The position numbers and the translations under genes are program-made. A DNA stretch of 64,000 nt, from contig JAYWIR010000006.1 in the NCBI GenBank assembly GCA_036172245.1, positions 5,022,001 to 5,086,000 of the forward strand. Reading direction: 5' to 3'. Positions 12,626-61,396 of this stretch are shown here, one piece after another. Position 1 is the first letter of the stretch, and each line of letters starts with the position of its first letter. Below the pieces are notes generated by a model. It was not told the origin of the DNA and did no database searches. It saw only the letters and a program-made list of their open reading frames with translations. Source of the DNA: Raillietiella orientalis. Taxonomy: Eukaryota.

Positions 12626-13682
12626 GGCAGAAATCGAAACAGCACAGTGGTCTGTCTACCGTTTTACTGGAAGACTGTGGAAAATTGCTGGCGGCCTTCA
12701 GTGACATGCAGTCGCTTCGTTATCAGGATTTCGCCCAAGTGTGGCGCAAGCACAGTTTCTCCTTAATTTATTGGTGAGAAACTTACTTTCTGGATCGGCA
12801 GCTGGCTAACGATTAAAGCAGTGGCCGGCAAAGCTTTAGGGACCTCCTGTCATTTGCGGAGTGCGCCCTGCACATTGCCAAACAGTTTTGGTTTCCTCCC
12901 CATCAGTTTGCGATCCGCGTCGGTGCACTGTATCTCCTCTATGGCCTTTATTACAAGCAACCGTATAGGTGAGCCTCCTGGGCCCAATGAGGCAGCGATT
13001 GTTTTAGGTACTTGGCCAAGATTCGCCTTACGTGGTCAGAGTTGCTGGAAGTGCGCTGCTTTATCAACCACATAATAGCCGAGGAACACCATGACATTCA
13101 TTACGTATACCATAAGCTGTGGAGCGATCAGGCGTTTGTTTTTGCAGCCACACCTCGGCCTATGGGACCTGATGTATTCTACACGCCCACGTCGGTCATC
13201 AAAGGCAGCCTTTCCGATAGCGCGGATTCTTCCGGCTTGCGAGGTCATGTGTTCGACAAAGTAATCAGCCACCTCAGTGTAATGCACCACGATTACCAAA
13301 AGTTTCGGAGCTTGATGTACAAGCAAGATAACGAAACACACCCCAACGTCATAGAAAAGTTGAAAAGTTGCCTGGTCCCACAGAGCGCCGCCCCGAAGGT
13401 TTCGGATCCTGAAAGTGCAACCAGAGATGACATCGGTGAGTTCGGGACGTCAACGTGCTTTTCCACCCCTCGTGTGTCCGCGAAGGTGCCCGGCGCGCTG
13501 CCCTCAGGCAGAAGGCCTTCAGTTGTACCGCAGCGTCGAATCCACATGCACGCTTGTCCCAGAAGAGCGCCTTGTCCCAGTCTCAGGATGTCGCCGACGC
13601 CGAGACCAGAGCGCCCGGAGGCGGTGAACCTCCCGTCGGTGCGTTCGCAGTGGACATGCCCGACATCACAGACAAGCCTTAA
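12626..13682 (+). CDS. SNAPC1: snRNA-activating protein complex subunit 1 (SNAP43/Pbp45); initiating exon not identified
   Basis: Exons 12626-12773 (LLEDCGKLLAAFSDMQSLRYQDFAQVWRKHSFSLIYC), 12822-12968 (GRQ...FAIRVGALYLLYGLYYKQP), 13008-13435 (KIRLT...YHKLWSDQAFVFAA) and 13486-13682 (GARRAALRQKAF...MPDITDKP*). These match the SNAP43 N-terminal domain pattern. The last exon boundary is less certain. Confidence 0.9.
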
Positions 13683-13998
13683 TCCACATTGTGATTTATT
13701 TCATGAAATCGTAATCGTATTATTGTTACACAAGATAAATGCAATGCTTGACTTTGGGATCTTGGGTACAAATATTTATATTGACAACGGATTGTAAGAG
13801 GGCAATAGAGAAGTGCCTGTAATATTGCTAAAAGGTTTCAAACAATCTGTCTGGGGGAGGTTGTGGAAAATGCTGCTGCGGTTGATGGGATTTTCGGATG
13901 CTATTGTCATGTGTTGAGAGAGGAGAGAGATACTTGTAACCAGAATCCCCGTCGCTGCATTCATATTTGCAGGAAACATATCGCATTGCTAATGTAAC

Positions 13999-32500: not shown

Positions 32501-35209
32501 GCAAACACGTGTTCGCATACAATACAAGAATGTACATATTATTATTGAATGCTGTTATGTGTGGCCGTAGGATAAGTAGGGGCACTTCAACACGGACTAC
32601 GAGATTCGTGGCGTGTTTTTTTTTTTTTTTTCTTCAACAAGGAATTTCGTGGTCGATCCATAAGATGCCATAGATACGATCTTAAATGCACGCCTAATAA
32701 AACGATTTCCTTTCCGTGCTTAAACACAAAGTGTGTTTCCAAATTTTTGTTTATCGGGGATAATGGGGCTTGCTTTCCTCGGCGAAAGACCACAAATTGC
32801 TTACCAGCAGCATTCGTCTCATAGAGTCGTGGACACAATGGCCATCGCATATTGATATGCAGTAATGGACTGCTGGAGGTACTGCATCCTCCATGGACTC
32901 TTTGAACGAAAAATATTCGTGGTAACACAGTCAGAAAGAGCATGTAAGCTCTCGAACGCTAAACAGACCTCATCCTCAGGAGACATTTGTCCCGTGGTTT
33001 TTTTTTACTGTCCGCTCTTCTTCAGCGGACGTCATCCCTCGAATCGGCTCCAAGTGAAGGGTGGAAAAATCGACCCTTCGTTTTAGGAAATGTTCCAAGG
33101 ATTGCGTTAAATTATCACAGGATGCAAACGTAAAAGGATACAATTAGTTAATTGCGTTTCGGAAACTCGAGCAGCGAGCTTCCAGAACGGAGAACTGCAC
33201 TTAAAACCTCATGATCTCTCTCTCTGAGAAATGATTCGCGCCCAAACTGAGTTTTCGTGAAACATCTGCAACCAAGCCAGGTGTATTTCAAAGAAACCTG
33301 CAAAAGAGATCTTCTTTCTCTCAAAGTTGCAAAAAAAAAAACAAACAAACAAACAAATGGGAAAAAGCCCTACTTCTGCACAAGTCGCATAAATCGTTGT
33401 GAACTAACCGCCACCACTTGCGTCGAATGCTCCTTTCCTTCTGATCCGCTTTTTTTCTTGAACGGTTACCACTGCATTGGAATCAGCGCGGAACCTCACT
33501 CGACTGAATGTACATTGGGTGGATTCGCTTGTTGTACGTTTAGGCTTCTGGACGGTTGCATCTCCGAGATACCTTCTTCCCCCCCCCCCCCCTCTTTCGA
33601 AACCGTGCAAGCTTTTTTTTCAGATATCTTGTGTTGGTAGGAGCGACATAACCCATAAGAGTGGAATCAACTATTTGTTGCCAGGGCCCTTAACTGGAGA
33701 AGGAGAAAATTGATCTTCGAGCTTTCGTACAAACAGGCGCTGCACCTTGACGACGAATTCCGTGCTTCTTTGCAACAAACCGAAGTAGCAGTTGATGACG
33801 ACTGTTTTAGGTCTTGAAAATGTAGCTGAGTCCAGTCTCGCTCTGTATACATTTCTGTGCCATTATGCAATGCCGTGGTTCACTTTCTGTTCTTTTCTTC
33901 TTCTTCTTCTCTCTCTCTCTCTCCCTCCCCCCCCCCCCCCCCCCCCCCCCGTAGATTTTTGAATTTCCGCGGATTCCTCTTCTTACGAAGATAAATGCTC
34001 TGTCGTGTTATTTCTGTTTACACCTATTCACGAAATGATGCTCCGTTATTTTCCTTTTTATTTTGCACATTTGCTTCTTGTAATGCTTTGCATTCCTTAT
34101 AAAAAAAAAAAAAAAAAAAAAAAAGGAGAAGAAAGGAAATGGTCCCAACACGGTCCGTAGCGTTCGTGGTCTTGCCAGTGGCACGGGTGAGAGCCATGGA
34201 TCCAACGAAGTTGCAGGTCATCAAGCACCTGCGGCGTCTCCTCTGATTTTTGAACGACGCTGGAAGTTGTCGACTTAGTGACGATGTTTTCAGGTGGGAT
34301 TTTAGCAATCGTTCCCAATAATCCGTGAACGTTTCTTTAATTTATTTAATTTTTTTTTTTTTTTTCTACTACCTCGGCTTTTATTTCGGCTGGGGGGAAA
34401 CCACGGTGCCTGCATGCACACGCTTCGGTGTTGCCATCAGATCGGGCTAAAGGGAGGAGGAAATCCTAGAAGTGCCCAGCATTGTTTTTTTTTTTTTTTT
34501 TTTCTTCTTCCCTCCCCCTCCCCCCCTTCTCTCGTCCCCTCTCCTCCTCTCTTCCTTCCTCCTCCTCGTATTGATCACAGTACTCCAGCGGCAGCGGAAT
34601 TCCGGGAGGGACGAAGAGGTAATCGCGCAAGACTCCATGTCGTACAACCGGGGGGGGGAATACGTGCAGTTGTGAATCGGGAAGTTGGTCTTTGTTCTCC
34701 GGTTTTTCGTGGGCCCTCCCCGATCCCCGTTCCTTGGTGGCAACTCGTGGGGGATAGCTGAGGCGTCGCCCGAGGGACCTTGGTAGGTACCGTTTGCATG
34801 TCCTGATCTGGCGATTGCCAGGACGCGTGAAGTGTTTTCAGCACGAAATGGAAATGGGGAGTCGGATCCGAGGGGGAATGAGGGTCGTGGTGTGTGATGG
34901 GGAGGTGGGGGGGGGGGGAAGGCATCGTTTTTGTTTTTTCAATTTCGTCATCCCCCATTGTGCATGCACAGTGACGGTGCGTGAATGATGAAAACATCAA
35001 GGGAAAAGTCGGAGAATCGAAACCTTGGAATGCTAAAAATTCTAATTGTCATGATATGTGTTCCCTTAGCAAAATCTGCAAGCAATACGGAAAGACGTAC
35101 CAAAGCATATATTTTACTACTAGAGATATGAACTGAAGCTTTCTGAAAAGTATTTCTACCGATTTTAAGATTGCAAGTCGACTTAATTTTTTTTTTTATA
35201 AATTTTAAG

Positions 35210-38200
35210 ATGAATTTTTTTTATTATAACGCCACTTTGTGTATTGTATTAATTTATTACCTTGGAAGATTTAAAAGTATTGGTAGTGAAATCAAAATAA
35301 GTGGTAAGTACCAGGGTGTTTAAATTATCCCATGATTAATCCCTGTACCTGAAGATACATTTCGTTTTGCCTTGTTCGAAGGAGAAGATAGTTATTATGC
35401 CAAAGTATATGAAAATGAAACTCTAGTTGATATCACACCAAAAATCAGAGCTGTTGGTAAAGAAACATGTAGCTTCCTACTTACAAACAAGCAGTCTACG
35501 GACATACCATTTGAAGTAAAGAATAGTTTAATAGATATTTGATATATACATACCTCGTGTTCACTTCCCATTAGGTATTATTGAAAAACTCTACAACAGG
35601 CGAAGCAGAAATGCATGCAAAAAGACCATTAGATTGTGAGAAACAGAAAAACTTCAAGTTTTACCTTCAAGCCATAGGGTGTGATGAATCAATCAGTGCA
35701 CCGTAAGATGGGTTGTATTTTGGAGGGAAACATTAAGAAGAATGCAGGGCCATCGTGCAGGTCATTGTGATGGATGTGAATGAATTTCCTCCTGTATTTC
35801 TGCAGTCAGAATACACAGCAGAAGTAGATGAAGGACAGCTGTTTGATGAAATAGTTCATGTTCAGGCAAAAGATCCTGACTGCTCTCCAAAGTATGGAGA
35901 GATCTGCAAATACGAAATCCTGAATGACAATGAGCCCTTCAATGTGAGTGCTGATGGATGCATTTGGAACACAGAAGTTTTGGATCACAGTCATGCTGAT
36001 AAGCATGTGTTATCTGTAGTTGCATATGATTGTGGTATGAAGCGGTCAAATTCAGTTGTGGTGACTATTCATGTGAATCGTGTATGTCATTTGGGTTGGA
36101 AGGGTAAGTGAAATGTTCTGTGACAGTTGGCAGTTATAATGATTGCATGTTTATGAAGCCATCACAGAAACTGTGGACTACCAGCCTTACCAAAGAGCTG
36201 TACCTTTGTTTCCAAATGTGACTCTGGATACTTGTAATGCAAACTGCCATGTTCAGAATGTGACTGTAAAAGTCAGCCTGCAGACTGACTATATTGCAGG
36301 AGGTTGTGACCGTGATACCTACTCAGTTAAGAACCAGCGGCAGTTATGTGGTAAACTGATTTTCATGCTACTGCAAATGTTTTCCATGCTTCTGGTAGAT
36401 CTCAGTCAGGATAGCTATGATTTGACAACACCAGCCAAGTGGCTGAGTAGTTTGTCCAAAGATGGCAGCCAACAAACCAATCCTGTATTTCGATTTGATG
36501 GAGCTAGTAATGGTGTAATAGTACCACCAGATGTGATGCCACATCAGTTTGCTTCCAAGTTTAGCATATCAGTGTGGCTACAGCATTTGACTGCAGCTGA
36601 CACTCATCGCAAGGAGCACATCTTGTGCCTGGCAGATGGTGAAAGTAAGATATTGTAGCCTAGAACCCCAGTAATTGTTTGCTTAGATATGAATCGGCAC
36701 CACATGGCCTTGTTTGTGCGCAATTGTAGATTAATTCTGCTTCTCAGGAGAGAGTTTGAAAGAGCAGATAAAATTTTGGCTCCTGCTGAATGGCGCTGGA
36801 AATTACCCAGTGTGTGTGATGGCCAGTGGCATCATTATGCAGTCAACGTTGATTTACCTCATGTCCAATTATTTGTTGATGGCAATCCGGTCAACAATGA
36901 TCCTCAAGTAATTGATGATTGGCCACTGCGTCAGAGTGACATTACAAATACAACCCTCACAATTGGTGCCTGCTGGCGTGGAGCAGATGATAGGATGGAT
37001 CACTTTCTGCATGGTGCTATGGCAGGCTTATCAGTGCTGCTGGGTGCAACTGAGAGCAGTGCTGTGTTTCACTGTATTCATCGTTGCCAAGAGTATCTGG
37101 AACTGCAGCCTTCAACCCTGCCGGACCCAGGCACAGAAATCCGAAAAGCAGAGCAGCAGCATTTTATCTCATTCCATGGGCAAAACGTCTCCAGTATTGA
37201 GAAGCTTTTGCAATTACTTAACTATGTGAATGAGCACAAGATACCTTCTCCTGGTAGACGCCTCATTCGTCTACTGACATCGGTGGCTTGTAATTATCAT
37301 GGAAGACTTGCTATACCAAAAGTAGAAACATTTGTTGATGTATTGCCAGCTGCTCATGTCAGCATTTCACTGACTGGTACCAGCAACATACATTATGACC
37401 AGCAGTCTCTTCGTGCAGGTGTACTTGTATTTCCCGATGTACACTTTGGGCATAAAAGTCCAGACACACTACCAGAACATCTGGTTGCTTGTCATATTAC
37501 GTTCAATCCTCCTTTGTCTTCAGAAAATGAATTTGTAACTTTGCCAGATGATTTGCTGGCCAATTTATCTTTGCAAGCGCATCTGACTCGCTCAGGCATG
37601 GTACTTACTGATGCCAAAGCAATTAGCATCTATGAACAAGCCTTGCATCAACTGCGGTACACCAATTTGCACCCTACGCCCCATTTAGCTCGTGAATTTG
37701 GTCTGATGTGCACAGATGATGGTGGCAGCATAACTAGCAATGAATTCCACCAGATTGTGACAATGAAGCCTCCATCCTCAAGTCTCCAGGCAAATCAACA
37801 CCATACGCCTGCACCTGCACATTTACTGAAGCATCGTCAAGAAGTGGCTGAGCCAAAGCTACGTCACCGTCCTGCAAAATTGCCAACAGGAAATGGTAAG
37901 GGTAACCACCAACCATGCAAGCAGTGAAAATCTCTCTTTTCTAGATAACACAGTTGTTTTTATTGTAATGCTTAGTGTAGTTTTCCTGCTGGTTTTGGTG
38001 TTGTTGGGAGTAGTACGCCTAAGACAGGCACGGCGTCGAGCTCAACAAGAAGACTTGGCAGACCAGGAGTTAGCTTGGGATGATTCAGCCCTAAATATTA
38101 CAGTAAACCCAATGGAAGTAAGCATGTTATCCTTGGAATTTTCATGATTATGCATCTGCTGCAGAAGTTTCATGAACATGCTACGTATAACACTGAGGAT

Positions 38201-38284
38201 TTTGAAGAAGATTGTGATTCCGAACCATATGAAGGAGATTCTGATGAAGAAGAGGATCTACACCAAGGTCCAGTTCATGCCTAG
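35210..38284 (+). CDS. CLSTN1: Calsyntenin (2 cadherin domains, LamG/LNS, TM, acidic tail), 9 exons
   Basis: Exons 35210-35303, 35355-35515, 35575-35702, 35748-36103, 36159-36350, 36399-36644, 36687-37895, 37945-38117, 38165-38284. Motifs DVNEFPP, DPDCSPKYGEICKY, KEHILCLAD, MNRHHMALFVRNCRL, PAEWRWKL, a TM segment and LAWDDSALNITVNP. Confidence 0.96.
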
Positions 38285-38324
38285 TTCTACTCATTTATAT
38301 ATAGAATATAATAAACCGAGTCTT

Positions 38325-39814
38325 TTATTGTCTAACTTGAATGGAAACACTGCTATCAGGTTCTCCAAAATAAACTTGCTGTGCCATGTCCACAAATAAA
38401 CCTGTTTCCACTACTCCTGGCAACATTGTTATTCCTGTGTCTATTTCTTTCCAATTATAAATCTGAGGGAATTGCCAGTCAAGAATCCAGTTCCCTTGAT
38501 CCGTAACAACGGGTCCCTAAGTGCTCATGGAATCTATCAGCTAAACAGGGATGTTAGGTACTGACTGCTTTGCGTATTCCTTGGCGCAAATTTGCAGTGC
38601 CACCCCAGCGTTTTTCAATTTTCCATTTGATTACTGCTTGCGCTACTGGCAGCACTTCAATTGGAATGCCTTGCTGCCAATGTTCCCCAAGTTGCAGGGA
38701 GCGTTTCCTATAAATGACAGATTCGTAGGTTCTTCAAATGATGGATTTTGTTCGAAGTCAAAGAAACTCAAAACGCAACCTATAGTCACAAACAATGATG
38801 AGTTCCTTAGCAGCAGATGCAACCACTTTCTCCTGTGCTAGACATGCTCCTCCACCTTTGATAAGTGTGAGATTTTTGTCTACTTCATCAGCTCCATCAA
38901 GAGCACAGTCCAGCTGATCATAAGTGTCAGATGTGAGTCAAGTACTCACTTGGCTATGTCTTGCCAAATCTGATAATTCTAATTTATGGTCTATAATGAG
39001 TTGTTGTGCTTGGAAGGAGGTGGGAATGCAGATCACCTTCAGCATTTTGGTCTTCACAAGGGTAGCTAAGGGATTTAGACATTAGTACAGTATTTTAAAA
39101 GCTGAGGGAAGCGTTTGCAGTAATAGAGTCGAGAGGGTTAGACAAGGTTTACTTGGTAAATATGCAGCTGCAAGTTTCTGTTGCAATCAACCATGCAGTA
39201 AACAATAGCTCATCTGATCACTTGAGCAAACAGTTTGCAGCAAGAACATGTACATTAGTAGATTCACTTTTCAGAATGCGAACCCAGAACATATATGATT
39301 GACTTATTAGTCAGTTATACTGATGCATGTCATACTGAGCTTTTGGCAATACGAACTCTGACACCCAAAACATTTCTCTACATCTTTTATTTGTCATACA
39401 AGACCAGCATGCACAGGCTCCTGATCACATCCACACTCATACTTTCGGTATTAATTTATGCTTGCGAAACTTTGCAGTCTGTAAATCAATGGCACTTTGT
39501 CGCCTAAAAATACTTTGGCATGTGGGTATTCAAAAACTGAATGTGTAACAAGCCAAACCCTTACATAAATCGATCAGAGTCAGGGTTCAACTACGAAGTT
39601 CAACTTTGTTCTTTCAAGTATGCAAAGAATGGTTAATCTCACCTAAATATTCCACAACGTGCACTATGGTAGATCCCGATCCTATACCTAAAACTGCTCC
39701 ATCCTTACAAGCAAATTAAAAATACTCAGATGCATGAATACTCACAAATACATGTGCATCAACAGCTTTTTGGGCTGCCTGGCGTTTGGCTATTTCTATG
39801 TTTTCCCCACTCAT
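38325..39814 (-). CDS. RPIA: Ribose-5-phosphate isomerase A, 6 exons (not in the ORF track)
   Basis: Exons 39814-39746 ([19 protein letters not shown]), 39703-39643 (VLGIGSGST), 39065-38950 ([10 protein letters not shown]), 38913-38780 ([23 protein letters not shown]), 38707-38566 (GIPIEVLP) and 38516-38325 ([14 protein letters not shown]...PGVVETGLF). The RpiA signature motifs are present. Confidence 0.96.
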
Positions 39815-40055
39815 GACTGCATGCTTTATTTGATACTAACAATACAAACACATTTCACAAACACAATGTGGTACGTGGCACACACTACCACAATGTTTTG
39901 CCCACATAATTACAGATAATCATTGAATGTTATGTATTTTCTGGAGGCACAACACAGACCAATGGCAATGATAGCACAGACATCATATCCATGCTAAATC
40001 CAGAAGCCCCAGTACCAGTTCTGGAAAGTCCAAGGCAACAAAGCAGCAACAGGTA

Positions 40056-43000
40056 TCATTGAGAAGCAGCGCTGTCGGAAAAAAATGAAGGAGCTGCATC
40101 CCCTCGACAAATTGGGCAGGTTCGATTTGACTTGACACACAAGTTATCCTTTCAAAAAGTTTTTTTTTTTTTTTTTATCTTACCTTCAACCATTTATCCA
40201 CACATTTGGCATGAAACTCATGACTACATGGTAGCATTCGAAGCATATGACATGGCTCAAAATCACACATGCATACTACACAGGTGCTTTGATCACCATC
40301 ATGAGTATCGGCATTGTATTGATAAGCAGGCAACTGTTCAATGTCATTTCGAGTGAGCCCCCGAGGTCTGGCTTCCCCAAGCCTTTCTGCAAGGTTCAGC
40401 AGGGCTTCATAATTTTCTTCTGATTCTGCTTCTGAACTAGGCACTTCAGGAGAGGCAGTTCCATATGTACCTAATCCAGGATTGATCATAGCTAATACAT
40501 GCATCAAGAAACTTGGAGTAGGTAAAGGAGAATAATTGCGAGAATGAGAAGTTGCTGGGATTCCTTGAGGTTGCATATGGGATGGGCGTTCTCTCCATGA
40601 ACGGTGAGTTGAATTTCTAGAACGGTGTAGCAAATGGTGGTTGACATGTAAGTTGGATGACTGCATAGCATACTGAAGAAATAATCAGTTAGATTAATTA
40701 GCTTCACCTCTGGATAGAACATGGGAGGAGAAGTATAACCAATCTGGTGATGGCCAATTCGTAAAGGAAGCCCAGCTAATAATGGGTTGTGGTGTAGATT
40801 ATCTGCAGCTGCTCCTTCTAAACGATGATGCTGTTGCTGTTGTGAATGGTGGTGGTGATGGTGGTGGTGGTGGTGGTGGTGATGATGGTGGTGATGATGA
40901 TGATGATGGGAATCATGTTCACCTCTCTGCCAATTAACCATTCTTACTCGATTTTTTATTTTCCTTTACACTGTCACCTGAGATTGCAGCTGCAGTGGAT
41001 GCATGTGATATGAAAAACTTGCTGGAGCTTGCTGTTGTGTTGGGAGAACATTTGGAGTACCTACTGTTACAAATGTCGAATGTGTTTGAGCAGCCAGATT
41101 GGGAATCTGATTCAGCAAACAGAAATAATAACACATGCATCATAGCTGTACCTGACAGGAAGTCAAATGGGTAGTAGCACAAGTGTAAATATTCTGAACT
41201 TGGCATGTTGGCAATCGGGAAGTTGAGCATATTGACAAGTTTGGAGTACTGTATAAGGATGAAACAAAAGGATGGCTAACAGGCACCTATTGTTGAACGA
41301 GAATGTATTAAACAAATATAAAAAACAATAACTGATTAAATTACAAATAAGACAGTTCCAAGTGTGATTTGCAAGATTGGCAACCACCACAAGGTCTATC
41401 CACTATGCAGAAACATGGTTACCTTACACCCAAAGTGAAAAGATCTGAGTTGAAGGCATTCCATAAAAGTGTTGTTCAAAACATGTTATTTCTGTACCCA
41501 ATGAAAAACTGAGTGCGGGACATTTAAGTCACAGAAGCTACAAATGGGAAAACCAGCAACTAACAAGCAGTAATATCGAAAACAAAATAATGTAATACAA
41601 CTAAACAAACTAGAATGTCAAAAATTCATGTCACACACATGTACATTTGTATGCATGCGCACTTAAAACAAAAGAACATCATGCACGCTTCAATGGCCAA
41701 AGCTTATATATCTATGGCACTGGATGAATGAGAGATGGCTTGCAATCCATTTTTTCACTCTTACCAACAACACACGCTAACAAGTTGACTGTACAAATGG
41801 ACTTACCACTCCAGGAATCAACATATACGGAAACACGGCCATTCCTAAATCAAGCTTACTACAACGAAACGTTTGCGTCCGCACATTACAATCACTTGAA
41901 TGGGGCTTATGGTGAGCCCGATTTACTATGGATACAGTAGTGAAAGTACTTAGCAACCAGACGTACTGCTCCAAGCGTGTCCACGGGTGGAAAATCAAGT
42001 TGTTGCCGGAGCGATTTCAGTTTTCCTCAGCGAGAACGAAAAAGCATCGAGGCACTAAGCGGAAGCAGCAGTTTTTACGCAATCACTCGGTTTTACGTCT
42101 CCGTTAGAGCACGGTAATCCTTAACAAAAGCAGGAGAGGGGGGGGGGGAGAGGAGGACGAGGAGGAGAGAGAGAGAGGGAGAGAGAGTGGGGGGAGAGAG
42201 AGAGAGAGAGAGAGAGAGGACAGGGACGCCCGACAAGCACGACAGAACGCGTTATCGACTGCAAATAGCCTATACTACGACGCTGTTCCGGTCATGCGCC
42301 AGCCATCTATCGGGAGGCACTGACAACAACAATTCAGCTGTACGTCGGATCACATTGCTTTCGGGTGGAAAACACTTCACTGGGTACGTGGGCACTGGGG
42401 AGGAGGAGGAGGAGGAGGAGGGGGGAGGGAAGAATTCCAGCCACCCGCATAAGCTCCCTTTATGGGAACCTGGAAGAAAAAAATTACCCACGGCAGTCGG
42501 AGGAGGAAGACGGTGGGACGCAATCAGGGAAGGGGGAGGGAAGAGGAGGAGGAGGAGGAGGAGGAGGGTGGGGGGGGGAGGAACACACACGGGACCCGAC
42601 CTCTCAACACACCGTACCTGCGATCCGTCCATTACTCGGGAAGGTTGCAGAGCCAGATTCGAATACTCCCAGCTCGGACTGCAGCAAATGGAGTTTATGG
42701 AAGCACCGTTCGGTGAGATGCCTTGACAGTGGGACTGCACCGTGGGCACGGCCACGATGGATTTTCTAGGAGACACACACACACGTTGAGACAAACAGGG
42801 GGGAAAAAAGGAGTCACTTGTAAATGTCGACGTACGGGGCTCCCAGCTTTTCTCGATCGGCGATCCTTCGCATGCTATAGTGTGACAGCGACGGGCGACG
42901 TCGTCGACGTGTGGCTGGCATTTCTCTTAATGAATTTAAGGAACTGATAACACTTCTCTCGATGTTCGACTGCGACGGGGACAGCCTGCGTCGTTTTATG

Positions 43001-43292
43001 TTTGGACTGTCGCTCTGAAGTCAACAACAGACTTATGAGCACGAGAACATTCGACTCCTATCGGTACGTGAACAGAAAAAAACGGAGGGGAAAGAAAGGA
43101 AAACAAAACAAAAAAAAAAAAAAAAGACAGTTTAAAGGTCGTTTGAGAGACCACGGCTGTCTCACAGGAATCGTCCGTCCGCAAGGTAAGATGGAGCCTG
43201 TTTACCCGCGATGGCACATCAGAAGGAGGAGGAGGAGGAGCAAAACAACGCCGCCACCACCACCACCACCACCACCACCACCACCACCACCA

Positions 43293-43323
<31 letters not shown>

Positions 43324-44660
43324 CAACAACAACCCATTTCACATGCCATTCATTTTCTCTCAACATAAAAACGCCCAAGGCATCAAGTACGCATGGCTCC
43401 CTCGTCAATATTTCTGCTACATTCATGGCGGTCGGCGCGCTTCTAGACCGTTACTCACACTTATTCCAAAGATTGCTTTAGAAATACCTTTGTGATCACG
43501 TCATCATCGCGCCAGTTGTTCAGGGCCATGTTTGCTGGCTGGGTCATATTCCCCTGATTCAGATGATCGTGTTGCGCATCTGGAATTAAAATATGCTCCT
43601 TACAGGTAAGTAACGAATATCCCAAAAGCTGGCCTCGGGCTGCTTTCGAAAGTTATACGGCTTTCAATAAAGTTTTTACTGTTTTCCCCGTACACGAAAA
43701 CACGCTGGACAATGAGAGACAATGCTCCCCGTTTCCTGAATAGTCCAGAGCCATTCAAACTGAAAACACGTGAGGGGTAAATCCCTCGCCTTGAGAAAAA
43801 CGATTTCCCCTTATTATGGGCGAATGCGCGAACCCAAAAGCTCCCATGCAGCCGAATGTCCCTCTGGGTATCTCTCTCTTCCCCTTCTGACAAGTGAAAA
43901 AAAAAAAAAAAAAACTTTTGGGGTGCCGTTACAGGTGCGTTCCCACGAAACATCCACCTGCCAGGGGAAGGTAAATAACGACAAATTCAAGAGGAAGGAT
44001 AAAATGCATTCCCGAGGGGTTTTTTTTTTTTTTTTTTTTCCCCCTGTGTACCGAACCTCCACGTATCCCCCCCCCCGCCCGATCGGCTTGGAGGAAGAAT
44101 TGGGTTTTCACACTCATATCTTCAATCAAAACAACGTAAATTCACCTCGTAGTATAGGCCGGAGATCATATCCTATACTGGGGCTATGCAACTCCATGGT
44201 AACAGTGTTCAGACCAGGACTTAGATTAAGAACTGGAGAAGAACTATCAAAACTAATGGGAAGAGGTTCCTAGGGAGAAAAAAAAACAAAAAAACACACA
44301 CAAATGGGAGCCTGACTTAAACAGGCAATCAAAATGAATGATCAAAATGGCTTAACACAATCACATGAATTGAATATATCATATACACTCTTTGCAAGTA
44401 GTAAGGAAAATAGTAAGGAAATACTATTTTTTTTTTTTTTTACTTGTAGAATGCTGACGTTTAGTGGACCAGTTTGGGGGCATTGTTCTAACCGAGTTTC
44501 TACAAAGTGGGAAGAATCACTATGGAAATAAGCTGGCTGATGCATGTAATCTTGATGAGATGTGGGACTGAATCGTTGAGTGGGTCCATTTCTTGTAGTA
44601 CTTTTCTGTAAGTAATAGAGCAAATTTTCCTTTGGACCTTGGCTAGGAGCAATGGGCATG
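40056..44660 (-). CDS. RNF38: RING-H2 E3 ligase RNF38/RNF44 family (murashka-like); 5' end uncertain
   Basis: ENYEALLNLAERLGEARPRGL and RING-H2 CVVCMCDF...LPCSHEFHAKCVDKWLK|SNRTCPICR. Exons 40130-40056, ~40672-40184, 40926-40708, 41106-40978, 41286-41152, and probably 42721-42618, 44269-44146 and ~44660-44444. More upstream exons are possible. Confidence 0.9.
43224..43333. repeat. Compound trinucleotide microsatellite (GGA)(CCA)(GCA)(ACA)
   Basis: Directly visible; lies in an RNF38 intron. Confidence 0.95.
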
Positions 44661-52499: not shown

Positions 52500-54500
52500 A
52501 AAGATTGCAAGTTTTAGACCCAGAATCAGTCAGCGTGTTCGGAGCCGGAAAGTCTCATCGGAAAACTCGCAGGGCGCCAGTTTCCCGGAAAGCAACGAAT
52601 CGGGGCAATTTCTTTTTGCCCCCTCCGCGCAGCAAAATCGGGAAAGGCAGCGCCGGACGGAGGCTTTTCTCATGAACCGAAAGACGGAGAGCTCGGAGTA
52701 GGAAAGCGACCGGGAGGCGACTCCAAAATCCACCAGCGCTGGTTGCGGTCGCTGCGAACCGCAGGGTGTGCGGCCAGCTCTTGACTGTTTTTTTTTTCTT
52801 TTCTTCTTCTTCTTCTTCTTCTTTCTTTCTTTCTTTCTTCCCTCCCCCCCTCCCCTCCCGGACAGGACGCCCGGTCCCGAGTGCCTGACGTCTCTTTGGC
52901 TGGAGCCCTTTCGGCGACTCGGGAGCATCCTGCGCGCGCAAGCGTCCGAACGCGGCCCCTGCGGCCCCTCGCGACCCGCACAATACGAGCAGTGGAGCCG
53001 CTCCTCCAGCCAGGCGCGCGATCGGCGCCGACCGCACCAGGCATGGGCCGGAATCAGCAACTTTTGAAAATGCCAGGGTTTGACCCGAGAAGATAACACG
53101 ATAAGTCCTCCTCCTCCAGCGGCTGCTGGGATCGTGTGGAAACGCCGGTTATCTCCGCAGCTTCGCCTGGAATTTGCGTCTCATCCCCGCTGCAGTCGCA
53201 GAAATCGGTATTAATGGCGTTCACAGAAGGAGTTTCCCACTGTGAAATCAAAGATGTGATGAAGTGGTTCAGAACGCAACATGCATGTGGCCACATACTC
53301 CGGCGGTTTCGAAGATCGATATCGATGATCGATGAAACTGGCATTTTTTTTTTCCTTCCTTTCTTTCTCCTCCCCCCCTCCTCCCAGGAAGAAAGGGGAA
53401 AAAAAAAAAAAAAAACACATATCTGCCAGGATTATCGCAGTGTCGGAGCTTTAATCCTTTTTTTTTTCCCCCCCCCCCTTTTAAGCGCTCTTCGGTACTG
53501 GCGATTGTGATCGCCATCCGCTCGCTGGCAGCATCCAAATCCGGTTTTTTCGATAGCGGAGAACTCTCCTGCGTACGCCCGTCAGCCGCGCAGGCCATAC
53601 AAATCAGGGAATGCGCCCCACGTGATCCCGCGGAAGCTTCCCATTGGCGCAGCTTTTATTGCGCTTCAAGTGCGAGGAGCGATTCGTAAACTTCGCTTGA
53701 AATGCGCAGTCGGCGGTGGTGGTTGACCGTGTGGTTTCGCGCGGCTGGGAACGGGTGGTGTGGCACGCGCGCACCACCGCGCCATTGTTGGGATCCGGCC
53801 GCTGCGATTGTTGCCTTCGGATTCTTGTGCGAGCGTTTGGAGCCGCCGTGCACGGTGCGTGCAAGGCCGGGTAGGTGAAGGCTGCTGGTGTGGCTGCGTG
53901 AGTCTTTGGCCGGGAGAGAGGGTCGGGAAAACTCGGCCGTCCCCCTCCCCGCCGGCCCCGTTCCAGCCTGGAAGCCCCCCCCGCCGAAGCCCGCTTTCCC
54001 GGATTCCCGTCGGCGCCGCCGGCCGGGCGCGAGAACCCGACGTTCGGCTCCCCCGTCGCCGGTGTGGTCCTCGGAAGAGACGCGGGCGAGGGAAGTCGGT
54101 CCCGCTTGCACGCTTGCCAGTCGCATTCCGCGATTTCGCGGAGTTTCGAAATGATCGCGGGCGAGGAAACAAACGGCTGCCTATTCGCGTGGAAAGCACT
54201 GGGGTTGCCAATTCGTTGGGCCGTTCCCCGGGCGTTGCGTAACACTGGCGTTTCTAACGTACGAAAAAAAAATAAAAAAAAAAGGATACCACTGTACTTC
54301 CGAGCAGAGTACCGAAAGTGTTTCCTGTCGGTGTGTATGCTATGCCTCCTCGTTCGATGCAGGAAAGTGCTTGCCTCGTGGGGAACGCAGTGGCCTCGAA
54401 TGTGCGCGAGTCGAGTTCAAAATCCATCGTAGTTCATGGAGAGTGGCATTTGAATCGAGGAAAAGACACGATGCAGCGTCCCCCCCCCCCCCCCCCCCCC
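52500..54500. promoter_or_regulatory. CpG/GC-rich island, candidate divergent promoter region for RNF38 (-) and PNRC (+)
   Basis: Very CG-dense stretch between divergently oriented genes, switching abruptly to AT-rich, CpG-poor sequence at about 54600. Confidence 0.4.
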
Positions 54501-57858: not shown

Positions 57859-58335
57859 ATGAGTATGGAAGTCAGAACAAAGAAACAAAGTTTTCCTTTG
57901 TTGTTTCAAAATAGTGGAGCAGTTTGTAATGGCATAAAGACAAAATTGCCCCATAAGAGAATTCAGAGTTCATGTAACCATAGGAAAAAAAATGGTCATG
58001 CTCTTGGTTATTTAGCACCTTCAAAAAATCAGAATAGTATCATAGAAGTATATGATTCTTGCAACAAAGAAGCTGCATGCCTTCAGTCTGCTGCAACAAA
58101 GTATATTCAGAAGGAAACTCATGTCAAATTGACTACATCTAAAGATAGTTTGTATCAGTCTGCTGTGCCTCCCTATGCTGGCCCAAAGTTCAGTGAACCT
58201 CCTTCACCTAGGTCCCTTCCAAAACCACCTTCACATTGGATGACCTGCAGAGAAAATGCTATGTGTGAAAACTTTTTCAGTAAGCACTTTGTATGCAATC
58301 AGATTAAGTTTCTACTAAATATGCAGCAAGCATAG
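57859..58335 (+). CDS. PNRC2: Proline-rich nuclear receptor coactivator (PNRC1/2-like), single coding exon
   Basis: Family signature YAGPKFSEPPSPRSLPKPPSHW and C-terminal QIKFLLNM (cf. LKxLLxV). Splice acceptor TTATTAG at about 57819. Confidence 0.9.
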   Translation: MSMEVRTKKQSFPLLFQNSGAVCNGIKTKLPHKRIQSSCNHRKKNGHALGYLAPSKNQNSIIEVYDSCNKEAACLQSAATKYIQKETHVKLTTSKDSLYQSAVPPYAGPKFSEPPSPRSLPKPPSHWMTCRENAMCENFFSKHFVCNQIKFLLNMQQA

Positions 58336-59276
58336 AACTGTAGAGGTAAAGTGAAAAACTTAAAAATACAAAGTAACTCACATGCATTTATTGTACAGAA
58401 CATTCTAAATTGTCTTTCCACTTCAGTGTGTAAGAAGAAAATTTGCATATTTCTGTGACTGAAATTAGGTTGTTAGGAGTTGTATGTTGGCTGATTGTAT
58501 GTTTGATGAATAATAGTATATCTTTGGAAGATGATGAGTTAAATTTCTTTCTCTCATTCATCTTCAGAATTATAGATCTCTGGATTTGAGTTATTTGATT
58601 TTTATGTGGTGATTTTGGATTGGAATTTTTGTATTCCTTATGGATCTGATTGTATGTTGGGATGATTGCACATTCTCGTGAACTTTTTTGTGAAATTTAA
58701 GCATGTTTCAAGATACCAGACATTTTTCTCTCTCTTGGGAAGCAAAGCAAATGAAGTTCTCTCTTGGAAGTAAGTTTTCTTTCAAGAAAATGAATGCAAA
58801 GGTGGACAATAGGCATGTTTTGGTTTGCAATAGTATTCCGTTTTCTTTTTCTTTTTCTTTTTTTTTTTTTATTAAAAAGCACTTGATTGGTTTATGTTTA
58901 CCTTGATAAATTATCAAGAATGTTGTAATTAATTGATCCAGTTCTAACTTTTGTGTACTAAGGAGGGTCTCTTTTTTTTTTCTTTTTTTTTTTTCCGTTG
59001 TTGTTCCTGCCATCATCATTGTTGAAAAAATATGTGGAGTGGTTTCTCAGTTTTTCATATTTTTATTTTGTTTTGGGTCCTTTTCAGGACCCCTACCATA
59101 CTTCGAAAGGTTGCCGTAAAATACAGGGATAGTTTGGGGGTAATCAAGGAATGGGGTTGGTTATCTTTATTAATTAAATAATTGCAACTAATCTTTAAAT
59201 TCAAGGCTGTTTGTAGAAATGGAAAAGTACAATCTTTGGTAAATTGAAAGCAAAGTATCTAACTAGTATTTAGAAA

Positions 59277-61396
<2,120 letters not shown>

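Follow-up and report, generated by a model that had tools for sequence, protein, structure and literature searches.

RNF38-RPIA, a candidate operon in the genome of a probable tongue worm

Operons with transcripts resolved by a spliced leader occur in nematodes, tunicates, flatworms and chaetognaths. In nematode operons, 50–200 nt separate the poly(A) site from the downstream acceptor, according to the accessible part of PMC7668243. Among crustaceans, reports describe spliced-leader trans-splicing in copepods (PMC4664967, in excerpt) and in the amphipod Parhyale (PMC5111886, in excerpt), and the available portion of a 2021 paper describes operons as unreported in copepods or amphipods (PMC7986045). 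For Drosophila, 159 dicistronic pairs have been counted, together with 130 genes that have a common promoter and 5′ exons (PMC4528330, accessible sections). A full-text literature search, from which subscription journals were mostly missing, returned no report of an operon or of trans-splicing in a pentastomid.

Within the window, the 64,000-nucleotide stretch of DNA analysed here, RNF38 and RPIA lie head to tail on the reverse strand (−). The RNF38 stop codon, TGA, ends at 40056 and the RPIA ATG is at 39814, as the first-pass annotation had them, and re-reading the intervening spacer (39815..40055, −) gave the same distance of 241 nt. RPIA (38325..39814, −) has six exons in an intact frame (39814–39746, 39703–39643, 39065–38950, 38913–38780, 38707–38566 and 38516–38325) that match Pfam Rib_5-P_isom_A, and an AATAAA (38324..38329, −) overlaps its stop. 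One of its introns is long (39066..39642, −; 577 nt) and the remaining four are 36–72 nt. The last three RNF38 exons (40056..40926, −; 40926–40708, 40660–40184 and 40130–40056) carry the RING-H2 domain and the stop in an open translation; the RING exon matches Pfam zf-RING_2, with RNF38 as the top match among solved structures in the PDB (E = 4e-25). The middle exons of RNF38 are only partly resolved, and its probable first coding exon is at 42833..42921 (−), with an ATG at 42921 and an acceptor further upstream near 43058. On the opposite strand (+), the calsyntenin gene ends at 38284, 40 nt from the RPIA AATAAA.

This arrangement resembles the SL2-type operons of Caenorhabditis elegans and Trichinella spiralis in that unrelated genes share a strand and a predicted poly(A) site lies about 80 nt before a near-ATG acceptor, with G+U-rich sequence between (PMC7668243, accessible part). 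Unlike those operons, it has no TAYYTT Ur motif, it belongs to an arthropod host, and our searches found no SL1- or SL2-like RNA gene. The operons of Ciona intestinalis and Oikopleura dioica, which use a single leader, likewise have a very short spacing of co-oriented housekeeping genes, and several other pairs in this genome are 69–143 nt apart; median intercistronic distances in those operons are 1–33 bp, whereas RNF38-RPIA keeps about 80 nt (PMC7986045, available portion). Copepods and Parhyale are likewise crustaceans and have leader trans-splicing; a leader is putative here (PMC4664967 and PMC5111886, both in excerpt). In Drosophila, the dicistronic genes and those with a common promoter and 5′ exon set an arthropod precedent for neighbours co-transcribed without a leader; about 2.5% of the genes in the fly are polycistronic, and of the 40 anchor genes sampled here at least 3 are tight downstream genes, a count that leaves out two ambiguous pairs, L114 and L134 (PMC4528330, accessible sections).

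The mitochondrial COX1 gene likely places the genome with the pentastomids. Three pentastomid sequences were among its four best matches (Armillifer, 77% and 76%; Linguatula, 75%), and trees grouped it with pentastomids at 100/100, with or without a long mite branch. It has 18 near-exclusive residues in common with the pentastomids; 300 random trios, used as a lenient control, gave 0. The trees included no fish louse or ostracod, so the placement is likely but short of certain. Searches with calsyntenin, DDX41 and PSMB2 returned no close pentastomid protein (best matches about 44%, 85% and 59%); the nearest relatives of the first two were distant arthropods, and a tree built on calsyntenin gave no placement.

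Gene bodies in this genome are CpG-depleted and 5′ regions are CpG-normal. At the 5′ end of RNF38, the observed/expected CpG ratio was 0.7–1.25 across 41500..44000 (strand not assigned), compared with 0.2–0.4 in gene bodies; this region is the putative promoter of the unit, and the start may lie further up. The spacer, which had been described as CpG-poor like the gene bodies, proved to be so, with 1 CpG where its base content predicts 9.5 (P = 0.002, taking the rate found ahead of 26 other start codons). These 26 comparison genes were hand-picked and have recognisable starts; PTS was left out, its start being absent at the guessed place. Only one of them was as CpG-low as RPIA, namely PNRC, which lies behind a long AT-rich stretch. 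Over the 241 nt before the ATG, the pooled ratio was 0.87 in the 26 genes (147 seen, 168 expected) and 0.21 in eight tandem-downstream genes (7 seen, 32.9 expected; Mann–Whitney p = 4e-5). This depletion is our strongest result, as a proxy for a missing promoter: we take CpG-poor sequence to reflect gene-body methylation and to be promoterless. Since RPIA has no such promoter mark, a single RNA is probably made from RNF38 and RPIA together; by one route or another their co-transcription seems to us very likely.

RNF38-RPIA is one instance of a genome-wide layout. We sampled 40 housekeeping loci, 26 of them DEAD-box and 14 proteasome, with 10 kb around each; gene prediction there used a self-trained finder and gave introns with a median near 48 nt; 17 LSM loci were mostly too short to add pairs. 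Searches underlie the assignments of PTS, PSMB2 and both the DEAD-box and the proteasome families, and most other gene names in the sampled pairs are ones we presume from recognising the predicted proteins. Head-to-tail pairs fell into one group with a CpG-normal stretch of at least 2 kb between the genes and one group without. The second group comprised, by distance from stop to start, NUBPL-QTRT1 (69 nt), PTS-DDX47 (90 nt), DDX54-TUFM (122 nt), MDH2-DDX55 (189 nt), RNF38-RPIA (241 nt), CK1-NELFB (550 nt) and PNRC-DDX41 (941 nt), as well as EB1-PSMB2, in which 143 nt separate the EB1 stop from the acceptor at which PSMB2 starts. The genes on either side of the six shortest spacers (69–241 nt) are unrelated. 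The RNF38-RPIA layout was thus repeated at seven other examined pairs. Tail-to-tail gaps were 34–81 nt in eight pairs, so the genome is compact in general; in the closest head-to-head pair observed (L135), the ATGs are 962 nt apart. Upstream of the window, 200 kb of sequence are gene-poor.

The spacer also holds a candidate acceptor, TTGTTAG (39836..39842, −), whose AG at 39836 is 21 nt ahead of the RPIA ATG, in frame with it and with no stop between. Its position stood as first reported, but its strength was only modestly above chance: among 186 predicted short-intron acceptors the AG reached the 67th percentile, and about 9 of 100 random AT-rich 40-nt windows contained an acceptor as good. 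Splice signals in this genome carry little information. In the eight downstream genes, the acceptors lying up to 40 nt from the start were better than chance (p = 0.014, one of the eight being itself defined by its acceptor); acceptors close to the ATG were also enriched in 28 other genes (p = 0.04). The stretch before the AG is G+U-rich (39838..39913, −; 61% across the 100 nt ahead of 39836), and no TAYYTT motif was present within those 100 nt; the motif preceded the acceptor in two of the eight downstream genes. Two possible cis donors lie in this stretch: with GTGTGT at 39885 (21st percentile of donors) the intron would measure 50 nt, and with GTAATT at 39913 (30th percentile) it would measure 78 nt. 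A three-codon upstream frame (39811..39822, −), overlooked at first pass, ends in a TGA that overlaps the RPIA ATG. The fold of the 241-nt spacer was not strong (z = −1.9).

The first canonical AATAAA past the RNF38 stop is at 39825..39830 (−), 10 nt ahead of the RPIA ATG and downstream of the acceptor, and the next is at 39391–39386, within the RNA-confirmed 577-nt intron of RPIA. Both had been noted at first pass, where they led to the argument that RNF38 mRNA must overlap RPIA coding sequence. That overlap is unnecessary because an AATACA at 39933..39938 (−), a plausible variant poly(A) signal overlooked at first pass, with cleavage expected at about 39915, could set the RNF38 end some 80 nt ahead of the acceptor, a distance inside the 50–200 nt range of nematode operons. 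A[AT]TAAA occurred within 100 nt of the stop in 21 of 28 genes, and of the seven genes lacking it, three had AATACA within 50 nt of the stop, which suggests that AATACA serves as a poly(A) signal in this genome. The earlier proposal of a single transcription unit loses its overlap argument and has indirect support from the CpG-low spacer, unlike 25 of the 26 other starts, and from the layout at seven other pairs. By a rough estimate, chance would put about one AATAAA in the 577 AT-rich bases of the long RPIA intron.

RNA data were available as contigs from two low-share runs, X1 and X2, at depths of 2–6 and in fragments. X1 supported three RPIA introns in total; its contig joins 39745 to 39702 and 39643 to 39065, which confirms the 42-nt and 577-nt introns. 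Binned depth suggests that this contig, which had no loose end, stops at about 39804 and misses the ATG by ten bases; it is therefore uninformative on the RPIA 5′ end. An X1 contig spans 42866–43016, at the probable first coding exon of RNF38, and X2 supported the RNF38 intron 40707–40661. No contig of either run, at this depth and fragmentation, crossed the spacer; the junctions listed for 35000–44500 included none from an upstream exon to RPIA, the acceptor itself being without cover. A deep X2 contig over RPIA (38654–38900) with 255-nt loose ends was set aside, as it looks like another organism.

A telling case of a missing 5′ piece came from PSMB2. Its single copy among the 14 proteasome subunit genes starts at the acceptor that follows EB1; an in-frame stop lies directly ahead of that acceptor, and comparison with homologues indicated that exactly the first Met is absent. 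No ATG|GT was present in the EB1-PSMB2 spacer. By contrast with such a start, PSMA1, PSMA4 and PSMB3 carry their own ATG|GT, and ordinary cis-spliced 5′ exons thus exist. Possible sources of the Met are a donor below the 1st percentile, a 4-nt AATG exon in intron 1 of EB1, a leader ending in AUG, or a one-base slip in the assembly. Since PSMB2 lacks its first Met, some downstream genes need a 5′ piece from elsewhere. The case favours shared transcription units here and is silent on cis versus trans splicing. In the window itself, SNAPC1 starts at a phase-1 acceptor, which fits the phase-1 first exon of PCED1.

Together, the observed gene structures, spacing, CpG pattern and recurrence in the genome indicate a layout that is real and beyond chance, and make RNF38-RPIA, as read from its sequence, a good candidate for an arthropod operon. 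We give about an even chance to the reading that it is a two-gene operon resolved by spliced-leader trans-splicing. Polymerase would start in the CpG-normal region above RNF38 and transcribe both genes; RNF38 would be cleaved and polyadenylated near 39915, directed by the AATACA at 39938; a capped spliced leader would be joined to the uncapped downstream RNA at the 39836 AG; and the RPIA mRNA would end with the AATAAA that overlaps the RPIA stop. The broader proposition, that many housekeeping genes of tongue worms sit in operons for which these animals have their own spliced leader, whose AUG-ending form could supply the missing Met of PSMB2 and similar genes, we put at somewhat below even. 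If true, no earlier arthropod operon system would be on record, and operons would have arisen independently once more, in a parasitic arthropod whose introns are tiny; the case would offer a test for whether compaction and leader splicing lead to operons, and the annotation of this genome would have to change.

Other readings dispense with the leader. RPIA may have a small promoter of its own, in the RNF38 3′ UTR or the spacer, that lacks the CpG mark, the AG being there by chance or ending a 50- or 78-nt 5′ UTR intron. The compactness seen in the tail-to-tail gaps would suit such a promoter, and the donors at 39885 and 39913 suit the intron sizes of this genome; set against it are the CpG counts of RPIA and of the pooled spacers, and the fact that several of the other spacers measure merely 69–143 nt. 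We regard it as unlikely. A shared promoter with a non-coding 5′ exon above RNF38, cis-spliced either to RNF38 or, skipping the RNF38 body with its poly(A) site, to the AG at 39836, is another reading. RNF38 does seem to begin at the acceptor near 43058, above which lie possible donors, and both the phase match between PCED1 and SNAPC1 and the 4-nt exon in EB1 would fit such an exon. It would, however, require about eight exons to be skipped where introns have a median near 48 nt, and similar skipping at many loci, and we think it quite unlikely.

Reinitiation after a long first reading frame is inefficient, which weighs against a dicistronic mRNA that runs to the RPIA poly(A) site and is translated into RPIA by reinitiation or internal entry, perhaps aided by the three-codon frame. 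The position of the first canonical AATAAA, 225 nt past the RNF38 stop where most genes have A[AT]TAAA within 100 nt, speaks for such an mRNA, as do the 159 annotated pairs in Drosophila (PMC4528330, accessible sections). However, the TUFM, DDX55 and QTRT1 pairs carry a poly(A) signal at or directly past the upstream stop, and the Met-less PSMB2 exon would be left unexplained. We consider this reading very unlikely.

For the leader-resolved operon, we searched the genome for a leader RNA gene with motifs taken from PMC3795323 (in excerpt). Rfam SL1 had 0 matches in the genome, a search without a positive control; no leader-like unit was present at the nine 5S loci; and the regions upstream of U1, U2 and U4 had no common promoter motif to search with. 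Nine pattern searches returned no leader RNA gene. As the donor and Sm spellings in them were guessed and no positive control was available, these negatives are weak. Donor-plus-Sm patterns gave dispersed single matches near the control level; for one pattern, 17 of 26 matches were inspected and none forms a family. A three-copy match looks like a coding exon, which we take to belong to an ankyrin-type family. An SL2-like 22-mer turned out to belong to dispersed repeats, as their antisense end, and GT followed it in none of the six copies examined, and the shortest amphipod leader matched at the control level. A universal leader ending in AUG fits RPIA and PSMB2 but not SNAPC1, given its phase-1 start, nor genes with an acceptor 2 nt ahead of the ATG.

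A 278-bp tandem repeat at contig ends was also considered as a leader gene and set aside as probable satellite DNA; we judge a leader function for it highly improbable. In some copies, the repeat has an ATG|GTAAG, a hairpin and an Sm-like run. Its GTAA is kept in 171 of about 1070 counted copies, and one of three units folds better than shuffled sequences.

The RNF38–RPIA layout recurs once more in the window, at PNRC followed by DDX41 on the plus strand (57859-61396), where the spacer is CpG-poor and measures 941 nt. An AG lies 3 nt upstream of the DDX41 ATG, and the sole CpG-rich region is upstream of PNRC (53500-54500). The RNF38 protein contains a tract of some 20 histidines (window 40830-40910, minus strand).

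On the plus strand at 8510-13800 lie two further genes, probably PCED1 and SNAPC1. SNAPC1 lies 280 nt downstream of PCED1 and opens with an acceptor of phase 1 near 12625, with no in-frame ATG at this start; the phase of the acceptor is compatible with PCED1 exon 1. However, if the assembly has slipped by one base in the T-runs immediately 5' of the acceptor, SNAPC1 would also have a local start. Elsewhere in the assembly, PSMB2, found as a single copy, has no local initiator Met in its 5' region (L137:5410-5554, contig C50 of G000). At the same locus, a 4-nt candidate exon, AATG, lies inside EB1 intron 1 (L137:3895-3898), preceded by a good acceptor.

In UAP56 (L135:4709-4715, minus strand), an acceptor and a donor stand back to back (AG|GTAAGT) immediately 5' of the ATG, and the DDX54–TUFM spacer (L123) carries an AG|GT resembling this site. 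At the 3' ends, calsyntenin and RPIA finish 40 nt apart (window 38284-38329), each with an AATAAA at most 25 nt from its stop; AATAAA overlaps a TAA stop in 7 of 28 genes.

A 278-bp tandem repeat, probably a satellite, was counted in about 1,070 copies (loci L191 and L192; ends of contigs C7, C34, C90, C100, C110 and C125). A subset of copies carries ATG|GTAAG, a purine/pyrimidine hairpin, which is preserved across variants, and an Sm-like run. The SmE gene has two intron-bearing copies on different contigs (L180, L181).

U1 and U2 gave more than 40 matches (L045-L054, L035-L044). Most U2 copies read lack the 5' end and have an A-rich run immediately upstream, the pattern expected of retrotransposons inserting into U2 genes. 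COX1 has 54 matches in the assembly, mostly fragments on many nuclear contigs, implying many mitochondrial insertions.
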